The notes under the pieces: generated by a model
Database searches by the model: none
Told to the model about the DNA's origin: nothing
Seen by the model: the letters and a program-made list of their open reading frames with translations, nothing else
Part shown: positions 10,680 through 38,800 of the stretch, one piece after another
How positions within the stretch are numbered: position 1 is the stretch's first letter
Layout of the letters: each line of letters opens with the position of its first letter
Made by a program: the position numbers and the translations under genes
Assembly (NCBI GenBank): GCA_038321615.1
Contig: JBBQFC010000004.1
Span: 12,768-76,767, forward strand
Reading direction: 5' to 3'
Length of the DNA stretch: 64,000 nt
DNA from: Flavobacteriales bacterium
GTDB taxonomy: Bacteria; Bacteroidota; Bacteroidia; Flavobacteriales_D; Cryomorphaceae

Positions 10680-10683
10680 GCCC

Positions 10684-13069: not shown

Positions 13070-15154
13070 CTAATAATTCCCAGATCGCTTGCGGATAAAC
13101 CACTCAGCGCTCAATCCCAAGATGAGCAAAACAAGTGGCCAAAAAAGGTTGAGCATGCTCGACAGCTTTTCGGTGCTAAAGCTTACAGGTTGTATCCGAT
13201 CGGATGCAGCAATGGCTTCAGCCATTTCGTCTATTTCACTGGGATAATATAGCTCGCCGCCTGTAGATTGTGATAGGGTGTATAGTAATTGATGGTCGGC
13301 ACGAAGCCGGGCTGCTTCAATAGCAAAGGGCCTGATCGTAAAACTGCCGCCATCGGAGAGTGGCCGGCCATCGCGATTAGTGCGGGCCGCAAAGGTGTAG
13401 GTGCCCACCGGAAGCATTCCAGCGTCGAGGCGATAAGCAGTTTCGGTGCGGGAAAAGTTGAAATTATACGTCTTATCTTCTTCATCGGTAAAATCTACAG
13501 TCACCTCGGCGTCGTTGACCGGCGAATATGCTGCATCGTACAACTCGGCGCTGAGTACTATGCGTTCGTTTTGCATAAGGTCGCGCGGAGCTTGCACTCG
13601 AAAAAGCCTTTTATCTTGCTTGAGAGAGAGGTATTGAATGATCTGCCCGATGAACCCATCGAAAATCTCATGGTTTTCATTTCTGGCAAAGTCCGCCAAT
13701 CGCCAACGCCAAATGCCCTCCCCTAGCAAGGTCGCATTTTTCCGGTCGTCGTAGGTCGTGAAAACCAAAAGTGGGTCGTCGGTAGCTATTTTGCCGACCT
13801 GTTGCTTTAGGAAAATGCTGGCACTGCCGGGCAATCGCCATGTGCCGAAAGGCACGCGCAGTGGCGGTGCATCTGCCAATAGCTCACTAATTCGGTCATT
13901 GGGTTGAAACAGCGTGAACGATTTATTCAATCCAGCTTTGACATCATTCACAGCATTTCTGCTTCCAGCCAGCGAAATACCGATACCTATCTCGGTCAAC
14001 CCGCGCAAATCGGAGTCGGCGCCGATGATCTCAAAAATAGGTTTTTTGGCTTGTACTATTGCAAGGCGGATTGCTCGATCATCGCTTAGTGAAGGTAATT
14101 GATGGAGCACCACCAGGTCATACTCCGACAAATTCGGAACCCCGTCGGCAGCGAAATGCACGGCTACTTCGTAATTTTCGTTACCCCCGATGGCGCTGCG
14201 TATAGCGAATACATCGGGGTGCGGAGCAGCAGAAAGAATTAGAACCTTTTGCCGGCTGTCAATAACATCAATAAATACCAGGCTCACATTATTGGCTAGG
14301 GTTTGTTCGCCCGAAACACTATTTAACCGCAGGGTATAGCGTTGCACGCCAGGCTTGTCGGCTTTGAGCAAGAAGCGGACTACCTTCTCATCGTCGGCAT
14401 TGCTGGGGGTGAATGTCCCTCGCTCCAGCACTTGGCCGTCTTTCTCGATTTGATAGTTCAGATTTTCACCTCGGAGTTCTATCCCACGAAACACAGCTTC
14501 TACAGGAAATGTATTCCCCAAAAAGGCGATTCGGTTAGCAGCCACTTCACTGATTAAGGCATCGCGGCGGGGAGTAGTATCGCCCAATGCTATGCTGTAA
14601 ATCGGCGCACCTAAACCTCCTGTGTCATATCGCGGATTGCTCCCGCGATTGTAAATTCCATCGCTCATCAATACCACGGCACCTAGATTTCGGTTGGTAT
14701 ATCTGGCCTTCAGCGACTCCATGAGCTCCGAAATATTCGTCACTTCGTCTTTGAAATCAGCCCCTATTCCTTCGCGCACGGAAGCTCCGAAACTATACGG
14801 CACTACTTCGTACTTCTCCCCGACCTTACTATTCAGCGCATCGGCGGTGCGCTGCACCAAAGCTGCTACCTCAGCCGAGTCGCTATTGAGCGTAAGAGAA
14901 GACGATTGATCGACCGCCAGGACAATTACGGGTGGTTCGATCTCCGTATTCACTTTTCGCAGTAGCGGGCCCAGAAGCAGAAAAACGAGTAGCGCGACTA
15001 CTGTAAAACGCAGTGCTGCTAAGCTAAAAAGAGTTGTTCGGGACCACGACTTCCCTTTGGAATTTTGGAAATAGAGCAAAGCCCCAAAGGCCAAGCCAAC
15101 CAAGGGGCAAAAAATAACGAACCATGTGGGGTATTCTAAGAGCAGATTTTTCAC
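13070..15154 (-). CDS. vWA-domain membrane protein (BatA-like N-terminal double-TM region)
   Basis: Two N-terminal TM helices, MIDAS motif VLAVDQSSSL (DxSxS), C-terminal TM anchor. Start is 2 nt after the fabG stop. Confidence 0.6.
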   Translation of the reverse strand: MKNLLLEYPTWFVIFCPLVGLAFGALLYFQNSKGKSWSRTTLFSLAALRFTVVALLVFLLLGPLLRKVNTEIEPPVIVLAVDQSSSLTLNSDSAEVAALVQRTADALNSKVGEKYEVVPYSFGASVREGIGADFKDEVTNISELMESLKARYTNRNLGAVVLMSDGIYNRGSNPRYDTGGLGAPIYSIALGDTTPRRDALISEVAANRIAFLGNTFPVEAVFRGIELRGENLNYQIEKDGQVLERGTFTPSNADDEKVVRFLLKADKPGVQRYTLRLNSVSGEQTLANNVSLVFIDVIDSRQKVLILSAAPHPDVFAIRSAIGGNENYEVAVHFAADGVPNLSEYDLVVLHQLPSLSDDRAIRLAIVQAKKPIFEIIGADSDLRGLTEIGIGISLAGSRNAVNDVKAGLNKSFTLFQPNDRISELLADAPPLRVPFGTWRLPGSASIFLKQQVGKIATDDPLLVFTTYDDRKNATLLGEGIWRWRLADFARNENHEIFDGFIGQIIQYLSLKQDKRLFRVQAPRDLMQNERIVLSAELYDAAYSPVNDAEVTVDFTDEEDKTYNFNFSRTETAYRLDAGMLPVGTYTFAARTNRDGRPLSDGGSFTIRPFAIEAARLRADHQLLYTLSQSTGGELYYPSEIDEMAEAIAASDRIQPVSFSTEKLSSMLNLFWPLVLLILGLSAEWFIRKRSGNY

Positions 15155-16105: not shown

Positions 16106-16891
16106 ATGAGAACCCTTACCTTCCTTGTGCTACTTTTCTCTTCGTTCCAAAATTTTGCTCAAATCATTCCCAACGCCGATTTTGAAGAATGGGAATTTTC
16201 AGGTTGGAATCTGAACCCAGCAGGTTGGATCACAAGCAATTTGCAATCGTTCGAGCCCGTAACCCAAATAGACGATGCCTATAGCGGAGACTATGCCATG
16301 CAAGTAGAAGCTTTGGTTCTTCCTTTGGGCCAATATGGCGAAGCCAAAACGACCTTCCCCATAAGTTTTATTCCCGCCAGTTTGAATTTCGCCGTCCGAA
16401 CAGAACTTGCTTTCGGTGCCGTACAAGTTCGTATGACTTTCTATAATCAGGAAAACGAAATAACGAGCTACACTTGGTTTAGCTCAGAAGAATTTGTCGA
16501 GTGGACGCCTGTGAGCCTGGAAATGATCCAAATTGAGCCGATCATTACGCACGCGGAAATAGCGGTCATTGCCGAAGTAGGCGATCTGATTGCAGGAACA
16601 GCAATAATCCAGATTGATTCACTCTATTTCAATTTCAAACTTAGCGCAGCAGAGCGAAGCAACTTTACTATGGAAATGTATCCAAATCCGGCATCTGAAA
16701 ATTTCGTCATAAGCAATTTGTCGGCGTCGGCAGAGATCCGTCTTTACAGCTTGGACGGAAAGCTATTGAGGCAACAACAAATTCAAACTTCAAATCGGAT
16801 GGATGTCTCCGATTTGAATTCAGGTATTTACGTCGTTCGTGCGCAAGATGGTAGTAACACCACCTATAGAAAGTTAGTGGTAGCTCGCTAA
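16106..16891 (+). CDS. Secreted protein of unknown function with T9SS type-A C-terminal sorting domain
   Basis: Signal peptide MRTLTFLVLLFSSFQNFAQ. C-terminus MEMYPNPASENFVI...SGIYVVRAQDG...RKLVVAR. Confidence 0.75.
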   Translation: MRTLTFLVLLFSSFQNFAQIIPNADFEEWEFSGWNLNPAGWITSNLQSFEPVTQIDDAYSGDYAMQVEALVLPLGQYGEAKTTFPISFIPASLNFAVRTELAFGAVQVRMTFYNQENEITSYTWFSSEEFVEWTPVSLEMIQIEPIITHAEIAVIAEVGDLIAGTAIIQIDSLYFNFKLSAAERSNFTMEMYPNPASENFVISNLSASAEIRLYSLDGKLLRQQQIQTSNRMDVSDLNSGIYVVRAQDGSNTTYRKLVVAR

Positions 16892-18173: not shown

Positions 18174-18950
18174 GTGGAAGTGACAGCGAGTTTAGCCCCT
18201 ATTATCGAAGTTATCGAGCAAGCCTATGAAATACCCCAATTGGGGCGACGCCGAAGAATCTCTGCCCTCCTACCCCACGATTATTATACCAGCGGAAAGA
18301 CCTATCCGGTACTTTACCTCAACGATGGTCAAAATCTTTTTGATGAGCATGCACCATTTGGAAACTGGGCTATAGATAAAGGCCTGGAGCGCTTGGCTTT
18401 CGAAGGCCACGCCAACCTTATAGTCATTGCCATTGATCATGGAGGTATCGATCGAATCACGGAGTATATGCCTTATTTCAATGCCCGTTTTGGCAAAGCC
18501 CAAGGTAAATTATATCTCCGTTTCCTGGAAGAAACGCTCATTCCGTATGTCAACAAGAAGTATCGAACCATAGCGAAGAGCGAAGCCACTGGCATTGGTG
18601 GAAGCTCCATGGGCGGACTTATAAGTCTATATGCTGGTCTGAATCACCAGCGGACATTTGGTAAAACGCTCATTTTTTCCCCAAGTCTCTGGATCGCTCC
18701 TAAAATTTTTCAACAAGCGGAAAACTTCCGGCCCGATATGCCTATGCGTATGTATATCTATGCTGGAGGCAAAGAAAGCGCGAACCACATGGCCAATGTA
18801 TTGCGCTTCAAGCACACCCTACTTAGCGGTTATAAAAACTTGACCAATATGCAGGTACACGTAGCATTAAACCCAGAAGGTACCCATAGCGAAGGTTTTT
18901 GGCGCGATGAGTTCCCAACGGCAGTAAAATGGTTATATTTCCAGTTTTAG
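18174..18950 (+). CDS. Alpha/beta hydrolase, 'putative esterase' (esterase D / IroE-like) family
   Basis: Nucleophile elbow GIGGSSMGG, family-typical YPVLYLNDGQNLF, late His (EGTHSEGFW). GTG start. Confidence 0.75.
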   Translation: MEVTASLAPIIEVIEQAYEIPQLGRRRRISALLPHDYYTSGKTYPVLYLNDGQNLFDEHAPFGNWAIDKGLERLAFEGHANLIVIAIDHGGIDRITEYMPYFNARFGKAQGKLYLRFLEETLIPYVNKKYRTIAKSEATGIGGSSMGGLISLYAGLNHQRTFGKTLIFSPSLWIAPKIFQQAENFRPDMPMRMYIYAGGKESANHMANVLRFKHTLLSGYKNLTNMQVHVALNPEGTHSEGFWRDEFPTAVKWLYFQF

Positions 18951-18967
18951 CTTATTTCCCCACTACT

Positions 18968-20359
18968 ATGGACGTTCAAATAGCCGACAAAAAGGCAACT
19001 TCTGAATTCACGATTAAACCTTTCATCGCAGATAGCAAGGAAGCTCAAGGACAAGAACTTCCGAACATCGGCGAATGGCTCATCGAACGCGAAGGAAAAA
19101 CCGCCACGCTTCACTTCGGAGTAGATTCCACCTGGTCAGAGCAGAAAATGGCGGAGCAGTTTCGCTTACTTGCCCAAAAAACAGAAAAATACTGGGGCGC
19201 GAAACCACATCTAGATTTAAGTAAAGTAGATGCTTACGCCTTACCAATTATTCGCGGGCTAAACATGAACGGTTATACCCAGGCGATGCTTAAGCCTCAG
19301 AAAACAAAACTCAAAACCACTTTATCTCTTGTTGGTAAAGTCGATGCAAAACTATTGGCGGAAGCCAAAGCCGAAGCAGAAGTGCAGCTTTGGGCCATGA
19401 CACTGGTAGATCTGCCACCTGAGCGCAAAACTCCGGAAATAATTGCGGCGAAAACCCGTGAAATGGCCAAGAAATATGGCTTGCAATGCGAGGTGTGGAA
19501 TAAAGATCACATAGTGAAAGCGGGTATGAACGCCCTTTATGCCGTAGGTCGGGGCAGTGTTAATCCGCCTGTATTAATCATTTTGCATTATAAAGGAAAG
19601 CCCGACTCAGAACAAACCGACGTTGTATTTGTAGGCAAGGGTATAACCTTCGACACGGGTGGTATATCGATTAAGCCTTCCGATAACCTTCATTACATGA
19701 AGAGCGATATGGCCGGAGCGGCGGCTGCACTCGGGGCAGTGCAGCTAGCGGCGAGGCTGAAACTCCCCATCAACGTTTCGGCTGTGGTACCATCAGCCGA
19801 AAATAGTGTTGGCGCAAATGCGCTGTTGCCCGGCGAAGTAATCAAATCTTATTCGGGGAAGACCATTGAAATCATCAACACCGATGCAGAAGGCCGCCTG
19901 GTGCTTGCCGACGCTATTGCTTGGGTTAAAAAAACGATTGATCCAGCAGTGATGATCGACTTGGCCACACTCACCGGAAGTGCGGTAAGAGCATTGGGTT
20001 ACGAAGCCGCCGCGCTATACAGTGATAATGAAAAATTAAGGAATCTACTTTATGATTGCGGCCAAGAAACCGGCGAAAAGCTCTGGCCTATGCCGCTTTG
20101 GAAAGACTACGATTATTACCTCCATAGCGACGTGGCCGACGTGGCTAATCTACCATCGACCCCTCTGGCAGGAACTATTGCTGCCGCTAAATTCTTACAG
20201 GTTTTTACAGATAAGCATAGCGCTTGGGCACATATTGATATGCCGGGGGTTGCTTTTCGCGACAGCCCCTTCTTTAAGACCAAATCGGCCACCGGTTATG
20301 GTGTACAATTATTGGGTTGTTTCATAAAAAAACTAGCAGCAAAATCTCATAAATTCTAA
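18968..20359 (+). CDS. pepA: Leucyl aminopeptidase (M17 family)
   Basis: M17 signatures VGKGITFDTGGISIKP and NTDAEGRLVLAD. Start placed at ATG 18968 (MDVQIADKK). Confidence 0.9.
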   Translation: MDVQIADKKATSEFTIKPFIADSKEAQGQELPNIGEWLIEREGKTATLHFGVDSTWSEQKMAEQFRLLAQKTEKYWGAKPHLDLSKVDAYALPIIRGLNMNGYTQAMLKPQKTKLKTTLSLVGKVDAKLLAEAKAEAEVQLWAMTLVDLPPERKTPEIIAAKTREMAKKYGLQCEVWNKDHIVKAGMNALYAVGRGSVNPPVLIILHYKGKPDSEQTDVVFVGKGITFDTGGISIKPSDNLHYMKSDMAGAAAALGAVQLAARLKLPINVSAVVPSAENSVGANALLPGEVIKSYSGKTIEIINTDAEGRLVLADAIAWVKKTIDPAVMIDLATLTGSAVRALGYEAAALYSDNEKLRNLLYDCGQETGEKLWPMPLWKDYDYYLHSDVADVANLPSTPLAGTIAAAKFLQVFTDKHSAWAHIDMPGVAFRDSPFFKTKSATGYGVQLLGCFIKKLAAKSHKF

Positions 20360-20367
20360 GCATTCTC

Positions 20368-21579
20368 ATGGCCGATAAATTAAAATTTCTCTGTGTTTCT
20401 TCATATTTTAAAGGAGAAGCCTTTCTCGAAGCCTGCGCAGAAGCAGGCAATGAAGTGTACTTAATCACGTCGAGCAAATTGCAAAACGAAGCTTGGCCGT
20501 GGCATGCCATTACCGAGGTGTTCTACATGGAAGAAGATGAAAATCGAAAGTGGAATCAGCAGCATTTGGTAAATGCTATTGCTTTCCAGATGCGCGAAAA
20601 ATTCTTCGATCGCTTCATAGCACTCGACGATTTTGACGTCGAAAAAGTGGCCGCCCTGCGCGAACAGTTTAGAACTCCGGGAATGGGCGATTCCACTTCG
20701 CGTTTTTTTCGCGATAAGCTGGCTATGCGTGTAAAAGCTCAAGGCGAGGGCATTCCCGTTCCGGCGTTTACCCCACTTTTCAACGATTCGCACATCAAGC
20801 GGTTTATCGATGAAGTACCTGGCCCATGGATGATCAAACCTCGTTCTGAGGCATCGGCGGTAGGAATTAAGAAAGTTGCAGACGAGGCTACGCTTTGGGG
20901 TGTAATAGAGCAACTCGGCGACAATCGACACCGCTTTGTGCTCGAGCGATTCAGCCCGGGCACGGTGTATCACGCAGATGCGTTGACTTTTCAAGGCAAA
21001 GTAGTGTTCTGTCGGATCAGTCGATACCTCGATACCCCCTTCGAAGTGGCTCACGGTGGCGGTATCTTCCGCTCTCAGACACTCGAGAAAAATGATCCTG
21101 CAAACATCGCCCTAACAGCATTAAACGAGCGATTGCTCAAAGGTTTTGGGATGCAATACAGCGCCTCGCATACGGAGTTTATAGAAGACCGGGAAACGGG
21201 TGAGTTCCTCTTTCTCGAAACTTCTTCGCGTGTGGGCGGCGCCCATCTTGCCGAAATGGTCGAAGCGGCATCGGGTATCAATCTATGGGCCGAATGGGCT
21301 AAACTGGAAACGGCAATCGTAAGAAACACGGGTTACAAAGTCCCAAAGGACAGTGGTAAACAGGCTGGTATTGTGGTGTCTTTGAGCCGGTACGAACACC
21401 CCGATGACAGTCAATTTACGGAACCCGAAATAGTGTGGCGTATGAAGAAAAGTTGGCACATCGGTTTAATAGTTCGTGCGGCTAAAGCAAATAAGGTTTT
21501 AGAATTGCTCAATAGTCTCACCAACCGTATTCACTCCGATTACCACGGTAGCGCACCTGCACCCGATCGCTCGCCCTGA
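20368..21579 (+). CDS. ATP-grasp domain carboxylate-amine ligase, substrate unknown
   Basis: ATP-grasp strands WMIKPRSEASAVGIKKV and FVLERFSPG. Metal/ATP site HTEFIEDRETGEFLFLETSSRVGGAHL. Only a 9-nt gap after pepA. Confidence 0.7.
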   Translation: MADKLKFLCVSSYFKGEAFLEACAEAGNEVYLITSSKLQNEAWPWHAITEVFYMEEDENRKWNQQHLVNAIAFQMREKFFDRFIALDDFDVEKVAALREQFRTPGMGDSTSRFFRDKLAMRVKAQGEGIPVPAFTPLFNDSHIKRFIDEVPGPWMIKPRSEASAVGIKKVADEATLWGVIEQLGDNRHRFVLERFSPGTVYHADALTFQGKVVFCRISRYLDTPFEVAHGGGIFRSQTLEKNDPANIALTALNERLLKGFGMQYSASHTEFIEDRETGEFLFLETSSRVGGAHLAEMVEAASGINLWAEWAKLETAIVRNTGYKVPKDSGKQAGIVVSLSRYEHPDDSQFTEPEIVWRMKKSWHIGLIVRAAKANKVLELLNSLTNRIHSDYHGSAPAPDRSP

Positions 21580-21632: not shown

Positions 21633-22829
21633 CTAAACCGGAAATAAGGCAACGCTCGCCCCGACCCAATCCTTGTCCTTATTATATTTTACGCCGATCA
21701 TCTCGCCTTTTGATACGCGCACAAGGTTATTGATCACTTTGGGGCGAGCTTCATGCTCTTCCCATACCATCATCATGCGGACTTCAAATTTTGCAGGTCC
21801 GGTAGGTGTTTCAACGATCGGCGCATAGCTGACTTTTCGCTGAAGCAAATACTGATCGGGATGCTTCACTGCCATTATGTCGGCCATAGTAGGATGAAGA
21901 TTCACTCCGCTTCCCGCAAAAGAAAAGAGGGGTTTGAGCACCCAATTTTCAAGATCTGATGGATATTCAGTTAACTCACTGAGATAATAGCACTCTGGCA
22001 CATACTTGCTTCGCAACAGCGGCAGGGTATATTTGCTAATCCGGTAAAACCAATTGGGATGACCCACCCACTCTGCATCCACGTCATCGGTAAAAGAAAA
22101 CTCCCTGTTCAGATCACTATGTTGCTGCAGTTCGTCAAATATAATACGGTTGTAAATGCGCTTTACATCTACTTGGTTTCCATCCATGTCCACATAGTAA
22201 AGTCGGCGTCCGGATTTCTTCAGCTTGCTCAAGCAAAGCACTTTTATACCGAGTAAAGCAGAAGTTACTACAAAGTCGATGTACGTGTTTTGGGTTTCCG
22301 GCTCAATTTCGAGCATCACTACTTCTTTCGGGTCACAATTGCCAACAATAATGCGGCGCATTGTTTCGCGATAAGAATCCTTGTTAATTCCGCCGAAATA
22401 AGACTGATAACGTTCATCGATCTCATGGGCGTGTCGAAAGCCATCGGTGAGTAAATCTTGGAAGAAATACAAACTTGGAAAACCTTGGAGTTCGATAAGC
22501 TGGGGAATAATATTACCGCTTTCGTCCGCGCATATCCCAAAATCCATTTGGATAAATCGGCTTTTGCTGTCTTCGCGCGGCACGATCAGATCGGGCGTGC
22601 CAAACGCGCGCTGGGTCAACTTCAAGAAATCGGGTCGTACGAGCACATCGCTAATCTGCTCGCATGCTTCGAGTAATTTATCCTTCAGCTCCTGATCCAA
22701 GAATATCGGCGTTTCGCAGAGGCGAAAAGTAGGCCCAATTCCATAGGTTCCGTTTACATACTCCATAAATGCCGCATACCTTTCTGGCGTAAAATTGGCA
22801 TTAAATGCAGTTCGGACTTCTGGAATCAT
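21633..22829 (-). CDS. Glutathionylspermidine-synthase-like (YgiC/YjfC-type) amidoligase, substrate unknown
   Basis: IPQLIELQGFPSLY resembles the LLExNADTPTSLY pre-ATP-grasp motif. VLKPLFSFAGSGVNL resembles VVKPIFSREGANVSI of YgiC. The 398-aa size matches the family. By-eye similarity only. Confidence 0.5.
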   Translation of the reverse strand: MIPEVRTAFNANFTPERYAAFMEYVNGTYGIGPTFRLCETPIFLDQELKDKLLEACEQISDVLVRPDFLKLTQRAFGTPDLIVPREDSKSRFIQMDFGICADESGNIIPQLIELQGFPSLYFFQDLLTDGFRHAHEIDERYQSYFGGINKDSYRETMRRIIVGNCDPKEVVMLEIEPETQNTYIDFVVTSALLGIKVLCLSKLKKSGRRLYYVDMDGNQVDVKRIYNRIIFDELQQHSDLNREFSFTDDVDAEWVGHPNWFYRISKYTLPLLRSKYVPECYYLSELTEYPSDLENWVLKPLFSFAGSGVNLHPTMADIMAVKHPDQYLLQRKVSYAPIVETPTGPAKFEVRMMMVWEEHEARPKVINNLVRVSKGEMIGVKYNKDKDWVGASVALFPV

Positions 22830-22840
22830 TTCGATTTGAA

Positions 22841-23671
22841 TTAGGCGTATTCCATTCGCATATGCTTCATGGCAGTGCGCAGGAATGACGGAATTACCAT
22901 GTGATGAGTCCGTGCAATATGCTCTGGGTGCTCCAAGCTTTTCATCATAGCATTGTACTTGCGCACGCTGTGATTTTTGATTACCACTTCCCGGTTTTCT
23001 TCCTTTTCGAAATGCACGTACATCCCTTTTGGATCTGCCTCGGGGTGGTACTGCGTTCCTACCATATACGGCGAAAACCGCACCGCCATAATGGCCCGCT
23101 CCATTTGAACGTGGGTACGAATTTTCTCCAGAGATAAAATGGAAGCACCGCGCTTTTTAAATACGCTTAACTTGGGTTGTACCAATTGCCAATCGCGGCT
23201 ATCCACAATGTAATAAGGATCGTCGAGTCCAGCCAACATTGGATCGTCGGCGCCAGCCTTTGTTTTATGGCAGGGATAGATACCGAAGGATGGCACGCTG
23301 CGCAGGTTTACATCGCCTAGCCCAAAGTGGTTGCAAACCATCTGAAAAGAGTGACAGATGAAGAAGACGTGCTTTTTGTGTGGGGCTTCGGAAGCATTGT
23401 GCTTCCATACTGAGTCCACCCAATTGTACCATGCTACATCCCATTTGCCATCGCCCTCCAGCGGATTGCCAGGACCGCCTGATGAAATGTAGAGATCGAA
23501 ACTCAGATCGGGAAGCTCACATTTGCCGCGCACATCAAACTCCTGATACTCGATTTCATTGGCAAAATCGCCTAAAATCTCTTTTATAGCGCGGATTCCC
23601 TGATTGGAAATCCCTTCATACATGTTAAGCAGAGCCAACCTAAAAGGCCGCTTCAAATCATTGACCATCAC
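22841..23671 (-). CDS. Class-I glutamine amidotransferase-like / peptidase C26-like hydrolase
   Basis: Nucleophile Cys in VFFICHSFQ and His-Glu in GTQYHPE, so the Cys-His-Glu triad is intact. No synthase domain is fused. Confidence 0.65.
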   Translation of the reverse strand: MMVNDLKRPFRLALLNMYEGISNQGIRAIKEILGDFANEIEYQEFDVRGKCELPDLSFDLYISSGGPGNPLEGDGKWDVAWYNWVDSVWKHNASEAPHKKHVFFICHSFQMVCNHFGLGDVNLRSVPSFGIYPCHKTKAGADDPMLAGLDDPYYIVDSRDWQLVQPKLSVFKKRGASILSLEKIRTHVQMERAIMAVRFSPYMVGTQYHPEADPKGMYVHFEKEENREVVIKNHSVRKYNAMMKSLEHPEHIARTHHMVIPSFLRTAMKHMRMEYA

Positions 23672-23702
23672 TTCCTTTTCTCTAATGCGAACGCAGGCTC
23701 GC

Positions 23703-25811
23703 TTATTTCTTCTTTGGGCCTTTGGGCATTGCTCGTTTTACTTCAACCTTTTCGGCTGAAGTACCTACCGCAGGCGTTTTTTCCTTTTTGATCGAAGACT
23801 TACGAGCCGCTTTGGCCATAGTTGGGGCCGCGGTGGGCGTAGCTTTCACGCTTAAAGCCGACTTTGGTTTAACAGGGGCATTTGAACTGGTAGAAGCTGC
23901 TTTAGCCGGTTCAGTAGATTTTTTCGGACTGGTTGGTTTCGTAGGCATTGTACGCTTCATGCCTTGTGCCCTTAGCACTGCTGCTTTTGGAGCTGCGGAT
24001 TTCGGCGTATCAGTCTTTACGGCTTTCGCTCCAACGGATTTTGGTGCTTTCGACAGCACAGCTATGGGCGCTTTTGGTGCTACCGATTTAACCACTTTTG
24101 GTGCACTAGATTTAGTTTCTGGTTTGGCTTCAACGGTTGCTTCAGGCACCTTGGCTTCACTCACTTTTGCGACAGTATTTAGGCGGGGCTTAGGCCCACG
24201 CTTTCCTTTCACTTTGGTAACAGTGGCTCCTTCGGCCTTTACACGCGGCTTGAGTCCACGCTTTCCTTTTGCCGTTGCGGTAATTGCTCCGTCGACCTTA
24301 ACACGTGGTTTCGGACCTGGTTTGGCTTTTACTTTAGGCGTAATATCTCCTTCGGCCTTAGTACGCGGCTTAGGCCCACGCTTTGCTTTCACTTTGGGTG
24401 CAGTGGCTCCTTCGGCCTTAATACGCGGCTTCGGCCCTCGCTTTCCTTTTACTTTAGGTGCAGCGTCTCCTTCTGCCTTCATACGTGGCTTCGGCCCTGG
24501 CTTTCCTTTTACTTTGGGTGTAGTGTCTCCATCTGCCTTCATACGCGGCTTTGGCCCTGGCTTTCCTTTTACTTTGGGTGCAGTGTCTCCTTCGGCCTTC
24601 ATACGTGGCTTCGGCCCTGGCTTTCCTTTCACTTTAGGCGTAACGTCTCCTTCGGCCTTGGCTCGCGGCTTTGGCCCTGGCTTTCCTTTCACTTTGGTAA
24701 TTGCGGCTCCTTCGGCATTAACATTAACGCGTGGCTTAGGCCCGGGCTTCCCTTTTACTTTGGGCGTAGCGTCCGCTTCGGCCTTAGCTTTTGGCTTCGG
24801 TCCTGGTTTGCCTTTTACTGCTACCGATGTCCTTGAAGAAGGGCTGTTAGCTACAGATGTCGGCTTTGACGTGCCAAATTGATTTGCGACAAACGTTCCC
24901 CAGGTGAGGTTCATCTGTCCGTCTTTGTGGGTTTTGGCTCGCGCTATGGCCATATCAGCAGCATGCTCCACCACCCATTCGAAATTCTCCTGACCCACAC
25001 TATTCACATCGGCATCAGGCGCGGGATTGCAGAAATCGATGGCATAAGGCACCCCATCGCGCACGGCAAATTCTACGGTATTAAAATCATAACCGAGCGC
25101 TTCATTCAATTTAATCACGCCTTTTCGTACTTTTTCCAACATCGCCGAAGCTACTGGAGGCGCATTGTGTACATAGCGTAAATGGTGCGGATTGCGTGGC
25201 TCGTATTGCATAATGCGCACATCGTTTCCGCCCAAGCAATAGCATCGGAAATACTCGGTAAACTGAATTTCTTCCTGAAGCATCATTACCAACTGTCCGG
25301 TTTCCGAATGGCGGGCAAATAGTTCATTGGCATTCTCGAGCCTATAAACGCTCTTCCAACCACCACCAGAGTGCGGCTTCATATAGGCAGGAAAGCCTAT
25401 ATATTTAAATATACTTTCCCAGTCCATAGGGAATTTCAGATTGCGAAACGAATTATGGTCGGTATCTGCCGGGCGCTCATGCGATGGGAGAATGACTGTT
25501 TTCGGAACGTCCACACCAACATGCATCGCGAGGGCATTATTGAAGAATTTTTCATCGGAACTCCACCAAAACGGATTGTTCAAAACGGCTGTACCTCCAA
25601 TGGCTGCATTTTTTAAATATGCCCGGTAGAAGGGTACGTCTTGCGATATGCGGTCTATTATTACGGCATAATCGGTAGGCTTTGCCTGCTGCACCATTTC
25701 GATAGAAACAGCTTCGGCTTTGATGCCTTTCTCGGCTTTTTGATTTACACGCTCAATAAAGGCCTGGGGAAAGGTATTTTCCTGGCCGTAAAGGATTCCG
25801 ATTTTCTTCAT
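23703..25811 (-). CDS. RimK/glutathione-synthase-type ATP-grasp ligase fused to a Lys/Pro-rich tandem-repeat and histone-H1-like tail
   Basis: The N-terminal ~310 aa form an ATP-grasp domain (FPAYMKPHSGGGWKSVYR; NTVEFAVRDGVPYAIDFCNPAPD). Then come 11 x ~20-aa repeats KVKGKPGPKPRxKAEGDxxP and a 159-aa A/K/P/S/T-rich tail. Start moved to ATG 25811 (MKKIGILYG), which removes the overlap with the upstream esterase. Confidence 0.75.
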   Translation of the reverse strand: MKKIGILYGQENTFPQAFIERVNQKAEKGIKAEAVSIEMVQQAKPTDYAVIIDRISQDVPFYRAYLKNAAIGGTAVLNNPFWWSSDEKFFNNALAMHVGVDVPKTVILPSHERPADTDHNSFRNLKFPMDWESIFKYIGFPAYMKPHSGGGWKSVYRLENANELFARHSETGQLVMMLQEEIQFTEYFRCYCLGGNDVRIMQYEPRNPHHLRYVHNAPPVASAMLEKVRKGVIKLNEALGYDFNTVEFAVRDGVPYAIDFCNPAPDADVNSVGQENFEWVVEHAADMAIARAKTHKDGQMNLTWGTFVANQFGTSKPTSVANSPSSRTSVAVKGKPGPKPKAKAEADATPKVKGKPGPKPRVNVNAEGAAITKVKGKPGPKPRAKAEGDVTPKVKGKPGPKPRMKAEGDTAPKVKGKPGPKPRMKADGDTTPKVKGKPGPKPRMKAEGDAAPKVKGKRGPKPRIKAEGATAPKVKAKRGPKPRTKAEGDITPKVKAKPGPKPRVKVDGAITATAKGKRGLKPRVKAEGATVTKVKGKRGPKPRLNTVAKVSEAKVPEATVEAKPETKSSAPKVVKSVAPKAPIAVLSKAPKSVGAKAVKTDTPKSAAPKAAVLRAQGMKRTMPTKPTSPKKSTEPAKAASTSSNAPVKPKSALSVKATPTAAPTMAKAARKSSIKKEKTPAVGTSAEKVEVKRAMPKGPKKK
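24183..24815 (-). repeat. Coding tandem repeat, 60-bp period, about 10.5 copies (one 66-bp copy)
   Basis: Units are visible in register with the 60-nt sequence lines from 24181 to 24720. Central copies (24421..24660) differ at only about 5 of 60 positions. Confidence 0.95.
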
Positions 25812-25851
25812 TTTTTGGTTTTTTTGGGTTGGTGCAATTTGGTGGTGCAAT

Positions 25852-26562
25852 TTAAATTTTAGAAAGGTAATCTGGAAACATCGTTCGCCACAACGGCCAA
25901 TCATGTTCTGCCCAGCGACGTTCATCCATCCATACGTTCATATTCTTTTCCTGAAGAAGCCCACCCAATTTAAGGTTGGCATCTTTACAGATATCCCATT
26001 CGCCATAGCCGAGTATTACTTTAAGCTTCCACAATTCGGGATTTTGATCGCCCTTTATGTAATCTATCGGATTGTTGAAATAAACGTTATCATCGTAGTA
26101 ACCATCTACAAAAGAGCGAATATCGAAAGCGCCACTCATGCTGATTAAATGGCTCACCATTTCGGGGTGCTTGAAGGCAAAATTGGCCGCATGGAATCCA
26201 CCAAAACTGGCGCCAGCTACCACGACCTTATTGATGCCGTAGCTTTCGCGAATAGCGCCTACAACTTCTTCGGCAATAAACTTATCATACCACATGTGGT
26301 TTTTAACGCGCTCGGCTGGATGAATTTTCTTGTTATACCAGCTGTATTTATCTATGCTGTCGGGGCAATAAATCTTAAACCGCCCTTCATTTAGCAAATT
26401 GGCAGCAGAGTCGATCAATTTGAAATCTTTACTTTCAAAATGCCGACCCATAGTGGTCGGAAAAATGATAACCGGAGTGCCGTAATGACCATAAACCAAC
26501 ATTTCGAACTCCTTGCCAAGGGTGGGCGAATTCCACTTAATGTGTTCTTCTTTTACCTGCAT
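25852..26562 (-). CDS. Alpha/beta hydrolase, 'putative esterase' family
   Basis: Nucleophile elbow VAGASFGGFHA. 236 aa. First gene of the minus-strand operon. Confidence 0.7.
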   Translation of the reverse strand: MQVKEEHIKWNSPTLGKEFEMLVYGHYGTPVIIFPTTMGRHFESKDFKLIDSAANLLNEGRFKIYCPDSIDKYSWYNKKIHPAERVKNHMWYDKFIAEEVVGAIRESYGINKVVVAGASFGGFHAANFAFKHPEMVSHLISMSGAFDIRSFVDGYYDDNVYFNNPIDYIKGDQNPELWKLKVILGYGEWDICKDANLKLGGLLQEKNMNVWMDERRWAEHDWPLWRTMFPDYLSKI

Positions 26563-26594
26563 AAGTGTGTCGTCGACGCTTTGAATCGCATGAG

Positions 26595-26602
26595 CAAAGT
26601 TA
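26595..26602 (-). promoter_or_regulatory. -7 promoter box TAacTTTG, 32 nt upstream of the esterase ATG 26562
   Basis: Plus strand reads CAAAGTTA. It is the only exact box I saw in this divergent intergenic region. Confidence 0.4.
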
Positions 26603-26917
26603 AAACTATATCAATTTGTTAAACAAAGGGAAGAAATTCTTTGGTAAACTCTGAAAATCATGCATTTCGGGCGCTGATTTTACATTGATAGGAGGAAGAT
26701 TGAAGCTAAAAAAGCGAACTTCCAACCTTTTGAAATCTGGTAATGTGAAATATTTAACTCGGGCTGACATTGCTCTGAAACTGAATTTTACCTGTCGCAG
26801 CTAGCTTTTTTCTAATTTTCAGATTAATTGAAAATAAGCATATGAAACTTAGATTAGGTTAATGTTAAGAATTCTTTAATTTTATCCTCCCGCATAAAAA
26901 GCGGCAAAGCTTCAAAG

Positions 26918-27232
26918 ATGCATGGTATTGAGAGAACGTTCAAGTTTGAGAACGGTGAGAAGATTAAAGGCAAGTTCAAAATCGTCGCTATTGCCAAAAA
27001 GCGAAAGAGCAAGAAAAAGTGGCGGCCTGTTGTCTGGAAAGGGACTATCAACGACAAAGAAATTAAAATCGTGCAACTCTCTGCGGAGCCTGCTGCCATA
27101 GAAGATTTCGACTGGAAGGAATTCCCAAAAAAATATGAAGTGGTGAAAGCCTACATCGCCGATGCCATCGAAGAGTATTTTACAGAAACCGATCCCGTTG
27201 TCTTTGCAAAAAGTTTAAAAACCAAGCATTAA
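26918..27232 (+). CDS. Small hypothetical protein, Lys-rich centre and acidic C-terminus
   Basis: 104-aa ORF in an otherwise empty 350-bp+ region. No recognisable motif. Confidence 0.35.
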   Translation: MHGIERTFKFENGEKIKGKFKIVAIAKKRKSKKKWRPVVWKGTINDKEIKIVQLSAEPAAIEDFDWKEFPKKYEVVKAYIADAIEEYFTETDPVVFAKSLKTKH

Positions 27233-27235
27233 ACA

Positions 27236-29062
27236 TTATTCCGCTTTTTCTTTAGCATGTACCTTTATCGCTTGATTGTAAGCCTTTTGGTAATTCTCAA
27301 TCAATACATTCCAATCGAAGTTTTCCGAAAAGTCTTCTAATCTATTTCGCTGAATCATTCGGTAACGTCGGTTTGACTTGACGAAGTGAAGCATATAGCG
27401 ACCGAGGTCTTCCACCGCTTTTTTCTCGGGTTGCTTCTTGCGCTGAAGCACATAGATTCCCCGCTCCTCATGATCGGCTTCCATACTCTCTACATAGCTT
27501 CCAAAACCCGAAAGGTCGGATGTAATAGCCGGAACGCCACGTGCTACGCACTCCAGCGGAGTGTAACCCCAAGGCTCATAATAACTCGGAAAAATACCAA
27601 GGTGGCAACCCCGCACAAACTGTCCATAGTCGAGTCCGAAGAGCGGGTTGGTAGATTCAATAAAATCGGGATGATATACCAATTTAACCCGATCTAGGGG
27701 AGAATTAACCATTTGGTTACCCCGCATGTAATTGAGAATTTCGTCTTCAATATCATTCACTAAATTATGGGTGATAATTATTGGCCACGACTTCGTTTTC
27801 CACGACTGGATAGTCCTCCGGTAGCGCAGCTTCCAATAGTCGTCGATCAATTCGTTCAAGTTGGGCAATTTATGCTCCTCACTGCTGCCGGTGGCTGCAT
27901 AAAAAAGGCGCTCACCAAGTTGCTTTTCGATGGCTTCGCAATTGCGCTTAATCTCTTGCATTACCCCGCGCGATTCGAGCACGTCGGGATTTATACTCCA
28001 AGTGGGTTTCTTGGTTATGAAAAACATTACCACCGTTTTCTTGATCCCTTCTTTAACCATTTGTGCATTCAGCCATTTGAGAGCTTCGAGGGTTATGTCA
28101 TAGCCCTTATTGCGGAACTCGTAACGACCAGAAGTAAAAAAGTAGAGGGTATTATCAAGGTCGAAATTGTACGAGCTAAAGAAATGTCCAATTACGAATT
28201 CGTGAATCTTGTCTTTGTATAATTGATGGCGGTTATGCACCTCGTGATAAGCCACGTAGCGGGTAATGTTCAAGCCATTTGGAGTAATAAGATGGGGTTT
28301 TACACCTAAAAGATGCTCGCATTCCAATCCGGTAACGTCGCTCACCGTGGTGAAACAATCTGTGGAATGCGCTGCACCTCGCTCGATCTGAACCTGGGGT
28401 AGAATCCCAAATTTCCGGGACTCAACCTGCCAATCGAAGTTGGGAAGTTTCTTGTAAAATCCAGGATCATTGCCCGCCAGATACCTACCAAGCATAGTAG
28501 CGTGGGTGGTAAAAACAGTTGAAATCGGTAATCCTTCGCGCTTGATATCCAAAATGGGAAGGGCGGACATCCACTCATGGAAGTGGGCAACGATGGGGCG
28601 GGTATTTCGGACTACTTCTTTGGAGAGTATGGTGAAGAAGGTGCGATTGAGGTCTGCCCACATCATCATTTTTTCCAGAAGCGAATCTTCCTTGTTCGTA
28701 TTTATGCCGAGATCGAGATTGAGGTGTCGGTGGAGGGTATCAATTCTATTGAAAACATTTTGAGGGTTCAACAGCACCACGCGCGGGCGGCCTGTAACCA
28801 GCCATCGACCGTACCACGCCTCGTAACCCATAGCGCGCATTTTATCGACGGTGCGGCCAATGGGATCCGTAGCATTTTGAATCGGTTCAAACTCAGCGCT
28901 GATGTCTTCTGTTTCCAGCGGGCCAAGGAGGCAATAATCATCACCCCAAAGATCGATAGCGGCGGGCACTTTCGAACGAATTACGGTATAGATACCTCCC
29001 ACTTGGTTGCATACTTCCCAAGCGCATTCTATTATTAATGGATTCTTTTTGGTAGTGCTCAT
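27236..29062 (-). CDS. Glycogen synthase, eukaryote-like GT3 family
   Basis: N-terminus ECAWEVCNQVGGIYTVIRSK matches the GT3 glycogen synthase signature (EVANKVGGIYTV in yeast/animal enzymes). 608 aa. Confidence 0.8.
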   Translation of the reverse strand: MSTTKKNPLIIECAWEVCNQVGGIYTVIRSKVPAAIDLWGDDYCLLGPLETEDISAEFEPIQNATDPIGRTVDKMRAMGYEAWYGRWLVTGRPRVVLLNPQNVFNRIDTLHRHLNLDLGINTNKEDSLLEKMMMWADLNRTFFTILSKEVVRNTRPIVAHFHEWMSALPILDIKREGLPISTVFTTHATMLGRYLAGNDPGFYKKLPNFDWQVESRKFGILPQVQIERGAAHSTDCFTTVSDVTGLECEHLLGVKPHLITPNGLNITRYVAYHEVHNRHQLYKDKIHEFVIGHFFSSYNFDLDNTLYFFTSGRYEFRNKGYDITLEALKWLNAQMVKEGIKKTVVMFFITKKPTWSINPDVLESRGVMQEIKRNCEAIEKQLGERLFYAATGSSEEHKLPNLNELIDDYWKLRYRRTIQSWKTKSWPIIITHNLVNDIEDEILNYMRGNQMVNSPLDRVKLVYHPDFIESTNPLFGLDYGQFVRGCHLGIFPSYYEPWGYTPLECVARGVPAITSDLSGFGSYVESMEADHEERGIYVLQRKKQPEKKAVEDLGRYMLHFVKSNRRYRMIQRNRLEDFSENFDWNVLIENYQKAYNQAIKVHAKEKAE

Positions 29063-29154
29063 TCAACGATCGGAATAGGTGTGATCCAAAGTAAAGCATT
29101 CTGGCCTAAACATTGCAAGCCTTTTCGACACAGAATAATAATTCCGAAGGGATC

Positions 29155-29189
29155 CAAAATAAAATCCCGAGACAAGGATGCATCGGGAT
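29155..29189 (-). terminator. Intrinsic terminator downstream of tRNA-Arg
   Basis: Minus strand reads ATCCCGA-N12-TCGGGAT followed by TTTATTTTGG. Confidence 0.6.
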
Positions 29190-29199
29190 ATAAACTGAG

Positions 29200-29273
29200 T
29201 GATCGCGACAGGACTCGAACCTGTGACCGTCTGCTTAGAAGGCAGATGCTCTATCCATCTGAGCTACGCGACC
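29200..29273 (-). tRNA. tRNA-Arg (anticodon TCT)
   Basis: Hand-folded cloverleaf with acceptor GGTCGCG/CGCGATC and D arm GCTC-AGATGGATA-GAGC. Anticodon arm TCTGC-CTTCTAA-GCAGA, variable loop CGGTC, T arm ACAGG-TTCGAGT-CCTGT. Discriminator A, CCA not encoded. Confidence 0.9.
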
Positions 29274-29289
29274 CTGAAATAATGGAGCG

Positions 29290-29297
29290 CAAAGATA
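29290..29297 (-). promoter_or_regulatory. -7 promoter box TAtcTTTG, 16 nt upstream of the tRNA-Arg 5' end
   Basis: Plus strand reads CAAAGATA. Confidence 0.45.
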
Positions 29298-29657
29298 CTA
29301 TTTTCAGCGGGAATGGATGTCGCGAATTTCGATGCTATTGAAAAATTCGGCTCTTCCTTGGCCTATTTTTTAACGGTAAAAAGCGGAGTTCAGAATCCTA
29401 TTAAAACACGTGCTTTGATATTGTCTATTGGCCCAAATGATGGATTTCCTAAAAACATTTATATTATGAACTCTATCGTTCAACCGTTCTAAAACTCGTC
29501 GACACGCTTTCTTTCTTACTTTCTTTCTTACTCTAGACGAGCAAGGTTTTTCTAAATGGAATAATTAACGCTAGTTAACCCTAAGGAAACATTTTAATAA
29601 CACAATTTACATAACGCTTAGCCTTCCTTTCCGTAAGACTTTGGAAAGGTTTAGCAC

Positions 29658-35890: not shown

Positions 35891-38800
35891 TTAACGAATC
35901 AAGGTAATGTGTCCAAGCCGCTCCACAATCTCGCCTGTAATAGTATTGGTATACCTTATAAAATAAGCATAAACACCAGCTTCGCAGTAGTAATCGCCGC
36001 CATCAAGGTTTCCATTCCAGCCTTTATCAATATCGAAAGTGGTCCAAATAGTCTTCCCCCAGCGATCGATTACGGCGAAGCGAAAATCTTCCACGGCTAT
36101 CTCATTGGCGTAGGCCTTAAATAGATCGTTGACCCCATCGCCATTAGGGGTAAAGGAATTTGGAATATACACGTTGTGGATACGCTCTTTGAAATGAGCG
36201 ATCAGACGCGCCGGGCCCAAGAATTTGTAATTCTGATAACCCACTTCGGGATAAGCGATGGGGTACCCGAAGAAGACTTCCCAATGAGAAAATTCGTAGA
36301 TGCCGCGATTGATTGGGTCAAGCAAGATAAAGTCATTTGATAGAAAACGCTTCTCGTAAGGGAACGTGTCTTCAAATATTCCGTCAATGCGCATCACGCC
36401 TGCTCCTTCGGGTTCTACTTCGACTTGCAGGAGGTAATTTGGCAACTCGACGTAGTTCGCAATAACCACATCAGCAGTATTAAATACGGTAATAATCTCC
36501 GCGCTCGACTCATTAGGCGCTGGTATAGCGTTCAGAATACTCCAATGCGAAAATTCGTGAAAAGGAAGTAGAGACGCTGTTTCCAAAAGCACATCCACAC
36601 CGCCGGGTATTTGCAGATTTGCGGGAAGTGGGGTTATGTCGCTTTCGTTCATCCGCATGCTACCGGCGCCAGCGGGGACTACGTTGAAACTAACGGAGTA
36701 AATAAGTTCTTCGAAGAAAGCCGTTATCGACCCATCAGCGTCGGCGGAGAACAGGTTTTCGGCCGAAATAGGCGCATTAACAAAGACAAAATCCGATTGC
36801 CAATAATCAAAAGCCCAGCCACCATTTGCCGTAGCAAGTATAGCATAATCAGTAGCTGGAAGCTCTATGGTAACAGGAAAGGAATTATAGGTAACACCGT
36901 TCAAAGTGATGCTCCCGCCAAGCGCTGGCTCAGCATTCAAGGTGATATTATAAACTTGGTCGGGTACAAAATGAGCGACCAGGGTATCATTTGCAGTGAA
37001 GGTCAGTAAGATTGCCTCATCCAATTCGTCGGGAGTTATTACGGTATTGTTCGACGTCCAATGCGAAAAGGAAAAGCCAGGATTTTCATCGGCATCAAAA
37101 GGCACTTCGATGCCTCCAAAATAGGCGGTAGTGTAGGGATAGGTCGAGATTTCAAAAGAACTTAGATCGATTCGACCACCCTCTGGTGGATCGGCCATAA
37201 GCGTTATTTGATAAGGGCCGCTCAATTCCGGATAGCAATCAATAAAGCCATCGTTGACTGTAGCGCAGCGGGTATCGATGAAATCGTGAATCTCTTGAAC
37301 GTTCGACTCCCACTCGGCCATGCTCCCGCCCCAACGGGTAATGTGGCCGGGCATTTCAGGAGCGATAAGGCCAACTAAACTATCTAAGTGGTTATGCATA
37401 AAATCGCAACTGAAGTAGATGCCACTCAGATCAGAAAATCGATTAACATACTCCGAGAAGAATTGATCGTTGGTCAGCAGTGCGTTCCAAATAGGCACAT
37501 GGCCTTGACCGCCAGGGTCACCAATTTGAGCCGGGTCGCAGATATCCGCGTTAGCCGATTGATCGGGAATACCCGTAAAATTGACGTAATGCCCAAAAGT
37601 GGCGTCCATATCCCATAGAATATAACGCCATCTCCGACCGTCACCATCTGGATTGCGCCCACGCCACCAACCCGTATTCCAATTGAGCCAGTCGGCGCAA
37701 ACGGTGTAGGAGTTCAACGTGAAATAATCGATCAAACTGGTTACATTGAATCGATCCACTACATATTCGTAATTGGCATCGACAGACATGTCATTACCTA
37801 AAATATAATCGCGGAGATCGTACCATTCATCTGCTGAGCCAAATTCTTCCCAAGTGCCTCCCCAGGTTTTTAAGAAATCTACGTCATTGGAACCTTGGTC
37901 GTAATAATGATCGGTGAAGTCGATGTCATCAACCTTTTCGCGAATCTCATACACACCCCAATATTGCCCGTTCACGTACATCACGCAGGGTTCGTAGCTA
38001 CGCTCATCGAGCTTAAGGTCGGCTACTTGCGAAAGGCTTTGCACATAAGCATCGCGTATGTGGGCACCGCCGTTTTCAAAAGGGTAATTATCGCTAGCAG
38101 CAGCCTTCAGAATCAGGCGTTGGTAGCCATCTCTATCCTTCCCTGGAAACACCGGGTATTCAATTTCATTGCCGTAGCCAAACTCGTCTTGGGTTATATA
38201 GTCAATTCCGCGCTGCGGATAGGCCCACGAATCATTTCCATGTTCATTGAAATCGCCTAGTGCTTGAGCAAGCAGCTCTCCCTGCGGTGAGAAAAGCTCA
38301 AAATGGCCAACGGGTTCAATTTGTTGTCCGTTCAGCAGGGTTAAAAGTTGATTGCCACTTACGGAAACAATTGGCGTGCTATGTGTCTGGTTTAGGAAAT
38401 AGGTGTGGGTGGCAATGAAACTAGGAGGCGTATCGGGATTGCTGCTGAAAGCTCTCGCCCGAATTACCGTCGTTACTGCCAGATTGATAGACCCCGTATA
38501 TACTTGACTGGAGACGATTGGCTCCGAGCCATCGGTAGTGTAGCGAATAGTTGCGCCAGGAGTAGCGGAAGTAATGGTAACATTTGCGTTTCCGGAATAA
38601 TATCCAGGTGCCGTTGCAATTGTAAGCTCGGGATACTCATCGCGCGGAGCTGCATTCGGATTGCCCGGAGTTGGCGTAGTAAATATCGACCAGGTGTTGC
38701 CGCCATCGGTTGTCCTTCCTCGGGAATGCCCACGCTGATTAGCGGTAAGCAATAGGTAGCTATCGACAATGATCCCCCCCGGATTGCTTAGTACTGCTCC

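Follow-up and report, generated by a model that had tools for sequence, protein, structure and literature searches.

RimK and the LysX/ArgX group add amino acids to protein or peptide carboxylates, and to our knowledge the characterized RimK and LysX enzymes have no polycationic tail. The TTLL tubulin glutamylases are ATP-grasp amino-acid ligases with an added cationic part that positions them on an anionic polymer; this part is a folded, helical domain that binds microtubules. Bacterial histone-H1-like and AT-hook tails are known on structural or regulatory proteins, i.e., AlgP, PhaF, and CarD. The KPAA tail of AlgP has an H1-like composition and is needed for the spacing of polyphosphate (polyP) granules, with which AlgP associates; peptides derived from the tail bind DNA, AlgP is described as DNA-binding, and its repeat region is reported to be a mutational hot spot (PMC9239181). 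Myxococcus CarD binds DNA via RGRP AT-hooks, and HMGA-type and H1-like domains are reported to be functionally equivalent in it (Garcia-Heras 2009, as cited in PMC4374960). Here, we present an analysis of a gene in a 64,000-nucleotide (nt) stretch of a Flavobacteriales genome (positions 12,768 to 76,767 of contig JBBQFC010000004.1 of assembly GCA_038321615.1; the whole stretch is referred to as the window) that lies in a cluster of genes for putative ligases and hydrolases and encodes an ATP-grasp ligase, the C-terminus of which would be extended into a disordered polycation, an AT-hook-like array followed by a histone-H1-like tail.

The window ligase shares the three-domain ATP-grasp fold with RimK and LysX/ArgX (best template modeling scores [TM] 0.62-0.71; RimK profile match at E=7e-5); however, its Mg2+-site motif is D-x-x-N rather than E-x-N, and its gene context differs. 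With AlgP and PhaF, it shares a long disordered K/A/P tandem-repeat C-terminus (net charge +55 for AlgP and +78 for the window protein), but in those proteins the tail is on a small structural or phasin domain and not on an enzyme, and the unit is 4 amino acids (aa) long (KPAA) compared with a 20-aa unit with a basic core and an acidic spacer. The parallel to CarD and HMGA lies in the repeated basic hooks with spacers and nearby acidic residues and, within the ligase family, in PKRRGRPAK hooks and H1-like tails replacing one another; the differences are that KGKP/RGPK replaces the RGRP core in the window units and that CarD is a transcription factor and not an enzyme. The TTLL enzymes have no sequence relationship to the window ligase past the superfamily. 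Finally, the products of the glutathione and glutathionylspermidine genes (GCS2, GshB/GS, GspS, and YgiC/YjfC) share folds with the cluster partners, but the window cluster is without GCS2 and the partners are under curated cut-offs. The components are of known kinds, and what appears to be undescribed is their combination, an enzyme family that repeatedly gained C-termini of nucleic-acid-binding type, with an array of 11 to 13 lysine-hook copies at the extreme. We found no publication on the family, the cluster, or the fusion, with the proviso that they may be mentioned in the survey literature on amidoligases.

An ATP-grasp domain followed by a repetitive polycationic segment

The longest open reading frame (ORF) of the minus strand at this position is 23703..25925 (740 aa). 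Because all homologs begin with MKKIGIL (25811) and the first 38 codons of the longer version run into the upstream esterase gene, we conclude that the gene is 23703..25811 (minus strand, 702 aa plus stop), as in the preliminary description. Exact-sequence look-ups of the 702-aa and 740-aa products found nothing on record. All segments of the protein are encoded on the same strand: the ATP-grasp domain (aa 1-311; 24879..25811), an S/T/P-rich linker with the sequence QFGTSKPTSVANSPSSRT (aa 312-329; 24825..24878), 11 tandem units of 20-22 aa with a net charge of +50 (aa 330-552; 24156..24824), and a non-repetitive K/A/P/S/T-rich terminal tail with a net charge of +27 (aa 553-702; 23706..24155). 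The terminal tail (K21 A19 P13 S11 V9 T9 %) has the final residues KRAMPKGPKKK and is 150 aa long beyond the full unit 11; the 159 aa given previously hold when counted from the end of the basic core of this unit. The C-terminal 385 aa have a net charge of +78 and a composition of K22 A15 P14 %, and no other window ORF of at least 100 aa has such a segment. Long, disordered, rich in K/A/P, and highly positive, this C-terminus has the features of histone-H1-like bacterial tails, and its composition and charge bear out the extreme polycation of H1- and AT-hook-like character that had been recognized before.

Single-sequence searches of Pfam, NCBIfam, and the PDB returned only sub-threshold ATP-grasp matches for the N-terminal domain. 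No Pfam family matched at E≤0.01, PF08443 (RimK) did not match the window protein, and rimK_fam (TIGR00768) reached E=3.6e-4 with 20 bits compared with a cut-off of 143.4. The models of the R2K clade (PF18299 / PF14243) remained below threshold (R2K_2, E=0.025 and 14.9 bits compared with 26.2; R2K_3, E=0.087), as they did in relatives, and a phmmer search of the PDB gave E values of 0.1-0.4. A family profile built from 56 diverse members matched biotin carboxylase (1e-8), pyruvate carboxylase (3e-8), D-Ala-D-Ala ligase (Ddl; 4e-8), and RimK (7e-5) in the PDB. The AlphaFold2 model (mean predicted local distance difference test [pLDDT] 78; predicted TM 0.77) has a three-domain ATP-grasp fold and is disordered (pLDDT <50) from residue 306. 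Using Foldseek, we obtained 489 PDB matches at E≤1e-3, and 50/50 of the matches listed are ATP-grasp ligases with 303-363 aligned columns; the best was Ddl (E=1e-13), and RimK (TM 0.65-0.71), LysX/ArgX (TM 0.62-0.71), and the graspetide ligases PsnB, MdnB, and MdnC matched as well. In the profile alignment, K145-P-x-x-GGGW falls on the biotin carboxylase segment LKAAAGGGGRG (the K159/Gly loop), the QEE hinge (180-181) on MEKY, E247 on FEF (E276), and D259-x-x-N262 on E288-x-N290, which are Mg2+ ligands. These ATP-grasp motifs, i.e., K145/GGGW, QEE, E247, D259, and N262, are invariant in 45 homologs, and the invariant family residues also align to the ATP and Mg2+ sites of Ddl. On the basis of the model and the profile, the domain, which had been described as an ATP-grasp domain of ~310 aa, belongs to the RimK/Ddl structural class and is an intact ATP-grasp carboxylate-amine ligase; it falls in no curated family.

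The 11 units of the array have the consensus KVKGK[P/R]GPKPRxKAEGDxxP at the protein level, and Tandem Repeats Finder returned a period of 60 over 24187..24786/24819 (~10 copies, 76-80% matches, scores 480-642). The 11 tandem 20-aa Lys/Pro-rich units with a 60-bp period of the preliminary description are confirmed by this and by the translation; the array had been placed at 24183..24815, and only its borders were off, by <30 nt. The pairwise differences among units 4-7 amount to 4-7 of 60 nt, in agreement with the earlier value of about 5 of 60 for the central four copies. Taking the commonest codon of each column as the reference, we counted the departures from it: the 11 codons of the basic core KVKGK[PR]GPKPR have 27 that are synonymous and 11 that are non-synonymous, and the 9 codons of the spacer have 6 and 22, respectively. 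P6 to R and G4 to A account for most of the non-synonymous changes in the core, and within the spacer just K13, E/D15, and G16 are held. By this codon measure, the basic core is under purifying selection, while the spacer is not. The synonymous excess in the core therefore argues that the peptide motif is selected and that the similarity of the units does not merely reflect recent copying. No match at E≤1e-3 was returned when 140 aa of the array were compared with 5.8 billion proteins, a search in which the correction for low-complexity bias is probably limiting. KGKPGPKPR also occurs in viral contigs, as four single occurrences in unrelated ORFs that we judged to be chance or irrelevant. On the opposite strand, an ORF of 386 aa (23722..24882, plus strand) spans the array and the tail; it has a repetitive G/F/P/R translation and is most likely a by-product of the repeat composition and not a gene.

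When we scanned public metagenome contigs for a 35-nt pattern taken from the central units, exactly one contig matched, JGI Ga0105045_10016192 (L091), which has 97% nt identity to 29314..23089 of the window and the same gene order. The ligase ORF of L091 is in frame and has 13 units, and both additional units lie within the near-identical central block. Outside the array, 328/329 residues of the ATP-grasp domain plus linker and 147/150 residues of the terminal tail are identical. Another contig (L090), which is 99% identical, ends short of the ligase gene. Either close strains differ in copy number, or exactly two units were lost to collapse in one of the assemblies; the finding of 11 units here and 13 in L091 is in line with the copy-number instability that had been anticipated for near-identical units. 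Because near-identical 60-nt units are the type of sequence that is mishandled by short-read assemblers, and the two assemblies disagree in copy number, we considered that the array or even the fusion could be an assembly artefact, i.e., repeats that were collapsed or expanded or, as had been allowed for from the outset, a frameshifted junction of two genes. This is barely credible: the frame is open across 2.1 kb, it is kept in both assemblies, the difference between the two is exactly two units (120 nt), and all relatives pass from the same domain end into the tail with the frame unchanged. As the 13-unit gene of L091 is in frame, the enzyme-tail fusion was assembled independently and is not a frameshifted two-gene junction. 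A fusion artefact is excluded, and the uncertainty is confined to the exact copy number. We propose that the array gains and loses units through unequal recombination or slippage among the near-identical central ones and that changes in unit number would tune valency; 11 and 13 copies in 97%-identical strains would then be a natural case of rapid valency change in a bacterial disordered polycation.

Basic tails across the ligase family

The ligase family has no Pfam model of its own, and the precomputed Pfam annotation is empty for essentially all homologs; PF08443 is matched by 8/56 distant relatives, and few distant members touch PF08443 or PF02222. A word-indexed protein search gave at least 8000 matches, the best 120 of which are 73-85% identical and 312-515 aa long; the family comprises at least 8000 clusters at 90% identity, and an exhaustive search of representatives returned 1729 clusters at E≤1e-3 and 333 at E≤1e-30. 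A genome scan recovered family members in 80 species from all major Bacteroidota orders, Ignavibacteria, and Chlorobiota, with Cryomorpha ignava as the best match (82%). Cultured Algoriphagus, Mucilaginibacter, Dyadobacter, and Arenibacter are among the carriers of the gene cluster.

The ATP-grasp domain ends with the conserved motif NLTWG-x-F, and all beyond this motif is variable. Most family members have a basic tail, with lengths from 6 to >340 aa. Tails of at least 30 aa are present in 84 of 119 close homologs, and the net charge is at least +0.15 per residue in all but one of these 84 tails (83/84). The tails in the 80 species have a median length of 31 aa (range 6-217 aa; eight tails of at least 100 aa), while the window extension of 385-392 aa, depending on the anchor, is the longest seen together with that of the 13-unit L091. 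Because the nearest database relative of the N-terminal domain, P0001 (85% identical), has a tail of just 38 aa, we conclude that tail length changes fast. Judged by these lengths, tail length is clearly under weak constraint. The architecture is not a one-off, since basic tails are the rule in the family and only the length and the array of 11-13 copies are special to this lineage; a uniform lack of the tail in orthologs, which would have spoken against the preliminary description, was not observed.

While most Bacteroidota tails are H1-like K/A/T/P runs, one of which (P0023) matches Pfam HC2 at E=1e-5, i.e., below the gathering cut-off, other modules occupy the C-terminal position in several relatives. 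P0123 (61% identical, 652 aa), the gene of which adjoins the cluster esterase, has ~14 canonical AT-hooks PKRRGRPAK[E/P]K at roughly 20-aa spacing, each followed by an A/V/T/D spacer, and KRGRKPK variants at its C-terminal end. KKRGRPKK, KKKGRPAK, or KRGRKPK hooks are present in P0129, P0142, P0157, and P0188 (38-45% identical), and P0100 has KRKPGRPRK three times; RGRP/KGRP/PGRPR cores are thereby found at the same position in P0123, P0129, P0142, P0157, and P0100. Closer to the window units, a Saprospiraceae ligase (L022, 72% identical) has nine GKRGPKPK-type 20-aa units (GKRGPKPKASSVAKETKVP), P0007 and P0013 have three to five KPGPKPK motifs, and the closest cultured relative, Cryomorpha, has one motif copy (PSKPGPKPKGVP). 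From this comparison, the window unit can be read as a lysine-type AT-hook-like motif in a graded series RGRPAK, RGRKPK, RGPKPK, and KGKPGPKPR, and the ancestral tail probably held a single motif copy that was amplified in the window lineage.

A different solution is found in L027, L041, L063, P0121, P0153, and P0193, which end with a helix-hairpin-helix (HhH) module with the sequence DLKKIEGIGPKIE...W-x-QAK (L027:7132-7374, L041:7081-7329, and L063:6965-7219). The same mobile module forms the C-terminus of some NuoE, ribosomal L21 and S2, and phasin PhaH proteins, where the strongest NCBIfam match reached E=3e-22. It matches PDB entries 8yy9_O (E=9e-15) and 9wqv_a (E=2e-12) and Pfam HHH_5 at E=0.007-0.05. 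Three modules of nucleic-acid-binding type are swapped at one C-terminal position, which provides a strong comparative hint on the working site of the enzyme.

Finally, the tails of ~17/120 close homologs each contain one copy of the short motif [AP]P[KQ]RMM; all of these homologs are long-tailed (P0003, P0004, P0015, P0016, P0019, P0020, P0022, P0025, P0027, P0034, P0043, P0058, P0069, P0073, P0089, P0095, and P0100), and the motif often follows TAKAT-x-AP. GMKRTMP in the window tail (aa 618-624; 23940..23960, minus strand) is a probable degenerate variant based on the tail comparison. This looks like a conserved short linear motif in a disordered tail, and it could serve as a partner-binding or processing site.

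Proposed function of the tail

We consider it reasonably likely that the peptide ligase is tethered by its disordered, multivalent tail to a polyanion, nucleic acid or other. We base this on the extreme charge, the selection on the core, the phylum-wide occurrence of basic tails, and, above all, the swap with AT-hooks and HhH modules. The tail would act as a non-sequence-specific tether that holds the ligase on a cellular polyanion, and the co-encoded peptide ligases and hydrolases might be held there too, via the ligase. The H1-like tails of AlgP and PhaF and the AT-hooks of CarD work in this manner, and the logic recalls the cationic microtubule-binding domains of the TTLL glutamylases. Nucleoid DNA would be the first candidate and is favored by analogy to the AT-hooks of relatives; RNA or ribosomes are plausible alternatives, given the resemblance to RimK and the HhH module on L21 and S2, and polyP is a possible one. 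A tether of this kind had been suggested at the outset; it has gained indirect comparative support from the AT-hooks, GKRGPKPK repeats, H1-like tails, and HhH modules of relatives, with the three targets named at that time, i.e., nucleoid, polyP, and RNA, all kept as candidates. Polyanion binding, the identity of the polyanion, and the product or target of the ligase are what we infer from the data.

Several observations weigh against a tether. The window units, KGKPGPKPR or KGKRGPKPR, do not have the GRP core flanked by Arg/Lys that characterizes an AT-hook, and with KGKP/RGPK replacing this core, the sequence does not imply minor-groove binding. No Pfam model recognizes the window tail, including when the tail was searched alone. 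The HhH module gave no significant match to the HhH motifs of Pol beta, Pol IV, RadA, and NusA (E 0.2-1), we know of no demonstrated ligand for it, and in P0121 it is preceded by an acidic linker (~200 aa, strongly acidic). Moreover, a cluster of peptide ligases, peptidases, and esterases has no obvious need for nucleic acid. Lastly, many orthologs have tails of 6-12 aa, a few of which are lysine-free; because short tails are common, a tether would be dispensable for the core function.

As an alternative to a tether, the repeats could be a built-in carrier or acceptor for isopeptide addition by their own or neighboring ligases, comparable to LysW with LysX/ArgX or S6 with RimK, and the preliminary description had proposed the lysine and glutamate residues of the repeats as acceptor sites. 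We regard this as quite improbable because the five-gene cluster is kept in species with tails of 6-12 aa, some of them Lys-free (e.g., ...SFIKNQF), many long tails are nearly acid-free (D+E 0-3%), tails are not alignable between genera, and the C-terminal residue is not conserved. A swap for AT-hooks or an HhH domain would also be senseless for an acceptor. These points stand against the structural closeness of the domain to RimK, LysX/ArgX, PsnB, and MdnC, which are protein- or peptide-modifying ATP-grasp enzymes, the two to three more amide ligases encoded alongside, and the conservation of K13, E/D15, and G16 of the spacer within the array. A tail that can measure anything between 6 and 392 aa, shows little sequence conservation, is short in the closely related P0001, differs in copy number between 97%-identical strains, and has an array without a detectable homolog among 5.8 billion proteins could also be a largely neutral low-complexity expansion with no specific ligand, perhaps a solubility aid, the copies of which arise by replication slippage only. 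However, the synonymous excess in the basic core points to a selected peptide, and a strong positive charge is kept across a phylum by nearly all tails that reach 30 aa. Separate lineages have arrays of canonical AT-hooks or a folded HhH module at this very site, and a conserved PKRMM motif is embedded in many tails; altogether, we find neutrality unlikely.

Returning to the polyanion tether, we tentatively entertain a further model, which we would sooner doubt than adopt. According to this model, the ligase and its partners could form a nucleic-acid-tethered peptide-ligase system that follows a TTLL-like logic, in which amino acids are added to a nucleoid- or ribosome-bound protein, or a small peptide or peptide-amine conjugate is built and turned over directly on the nucleoid. 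The number of units would set the residence time or co-condensation with DNA, RNA, or polyP, and the H1-like, AT-hook, and HhH routes would have been reached independently. While tails of this type were known from AlgP, PhaF, and CarD, they are a recurrent appendage of an enzyme here. The cluster is conserved across Bacteroidota, Ignavibacteria, and Chlorobiota, and the tail gives a testable handle on this widespread ligase cluster.

The gene cluster and its surroundings

In the window, the ligase gene is the second of four co-directional genes on the minus strand, in the order esterase, ligase, GATase-like protein, and a 398-aa protein, with gaps of 40, 31, and 11 nt; the same gene order is found in 65-70/80 loci. 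The first gene (25852..26562) encodes an alpha/beta-hydrolase of the PF00756 esterase family (Pfam E=6.8e-10) and is upstream of the ligase gene in 70/80 loci. The class I GATase-like gene (22841..23671; Pfam GATase E=5e-5), which begins 31 nt beyond the ligase stop and is present in 67/80 loci, encodes a Cys-His-Glu triad (C106, H209, and E211) that is invariant in 24 orthologs. Based on AlphaFold2 (pLDDT 90.5) and Foldseek, the 398-aa protein (21633..22829; 65/80 loci) is predicted to be a circularly permuted ATP-grasp protein with the glutathione synthetase/GspS fold: 29/29 significant PDB matches are circularly permuted ATP-grasp ligases, and they include the eukaryote-type glutathione synthetase (TM 0.70), the putative GspS 3n6x, YgiC/YjfC, GspS, and trypanothione synthetase. 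A GCS2 (YbdK-type) carboxylate-amine ligase gene lies between the ATP-grasp and GATase genes in 70/80 loci but is absent from the whole window (tblastn). The four-gene variant without GCS2 is also found in L008, L012, L022, L035, L063, L070, and L085, several of which are Saprospiraceae, and we found no consistent pattern among the loci that links the loss of GCS2 to long tails.

Three plus-strand genes converge on this cluster. They encode an L-amino-acid-ligase-like ATP-grasp protein of 403 aa (20368..21579; PDB 4wd3 E=3.9e-15; NCBIfam D-Ala-D-Ala ligase models at E about 1e-7), a leucyl-aminopeptidase-family M17 peptidase (18929..20359; Pfam Peptidase_M17 E=3.5e-111), and a second PF00756 esterase of 258 aa (18174..18950; Pfam E=1e-25). 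In the 80 loci, with flanks limited to 6 kb, the convergent genes recur beside the cluster in at least 10-15 loci (the ligase-like gene in at least 15 and the peptidase gene in at least 12, with a paralog of the esterase gene near the cluster in several); thus, more than five genes may make up the functional unit. The neighborhood is an island of three to four ATP-dependent amide-bond ligases and three to four hydrolases. The folds alone suggest a glutathione- or glutathionylspermidine-like product, in view of the GCS2, GS/GspS-fold, esterase-D-family, and M17 components. We downgraded such a thiol because the window is without GCS2, none of the cluster partners reaches a curated family cut-off, and bacillithiol derivatives have been proposed instead: PMC6282198 puts these forward as widespread bacterial thiols, Bacteroidetes included.

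A scan for promoter and terminator consensus sequences in the window gave matches at the level of shuffled sequence. Bacteroidota promoters are not sigma-70-like. Elsewhere in the window, a 694-aa ORF (13070..15154) has no family match. Just upstream of the cluster, 27236..29062 (minus strand) encodes a eukaryote-type GT3 glycogen synthase (PF05693, E=4e-191), which is adjoined by a tRNA-Arg(TCT) gene (29199..29273, minus strand); the glycogen synthase gene is next to the cluster only in the close relatives L004 and L091 and is probably outside the system. Type IX secretion sorting domains (Por_Secre_tail and CHU_C) are encoded at 10669..12957, 16106..16891, and 35891..39145, and the proteins that carry them include a CotH-domain protein; these sorting domains are in keeping with Bacteroidota as the source, and Cryomorphaceae provide the closest gene matches.

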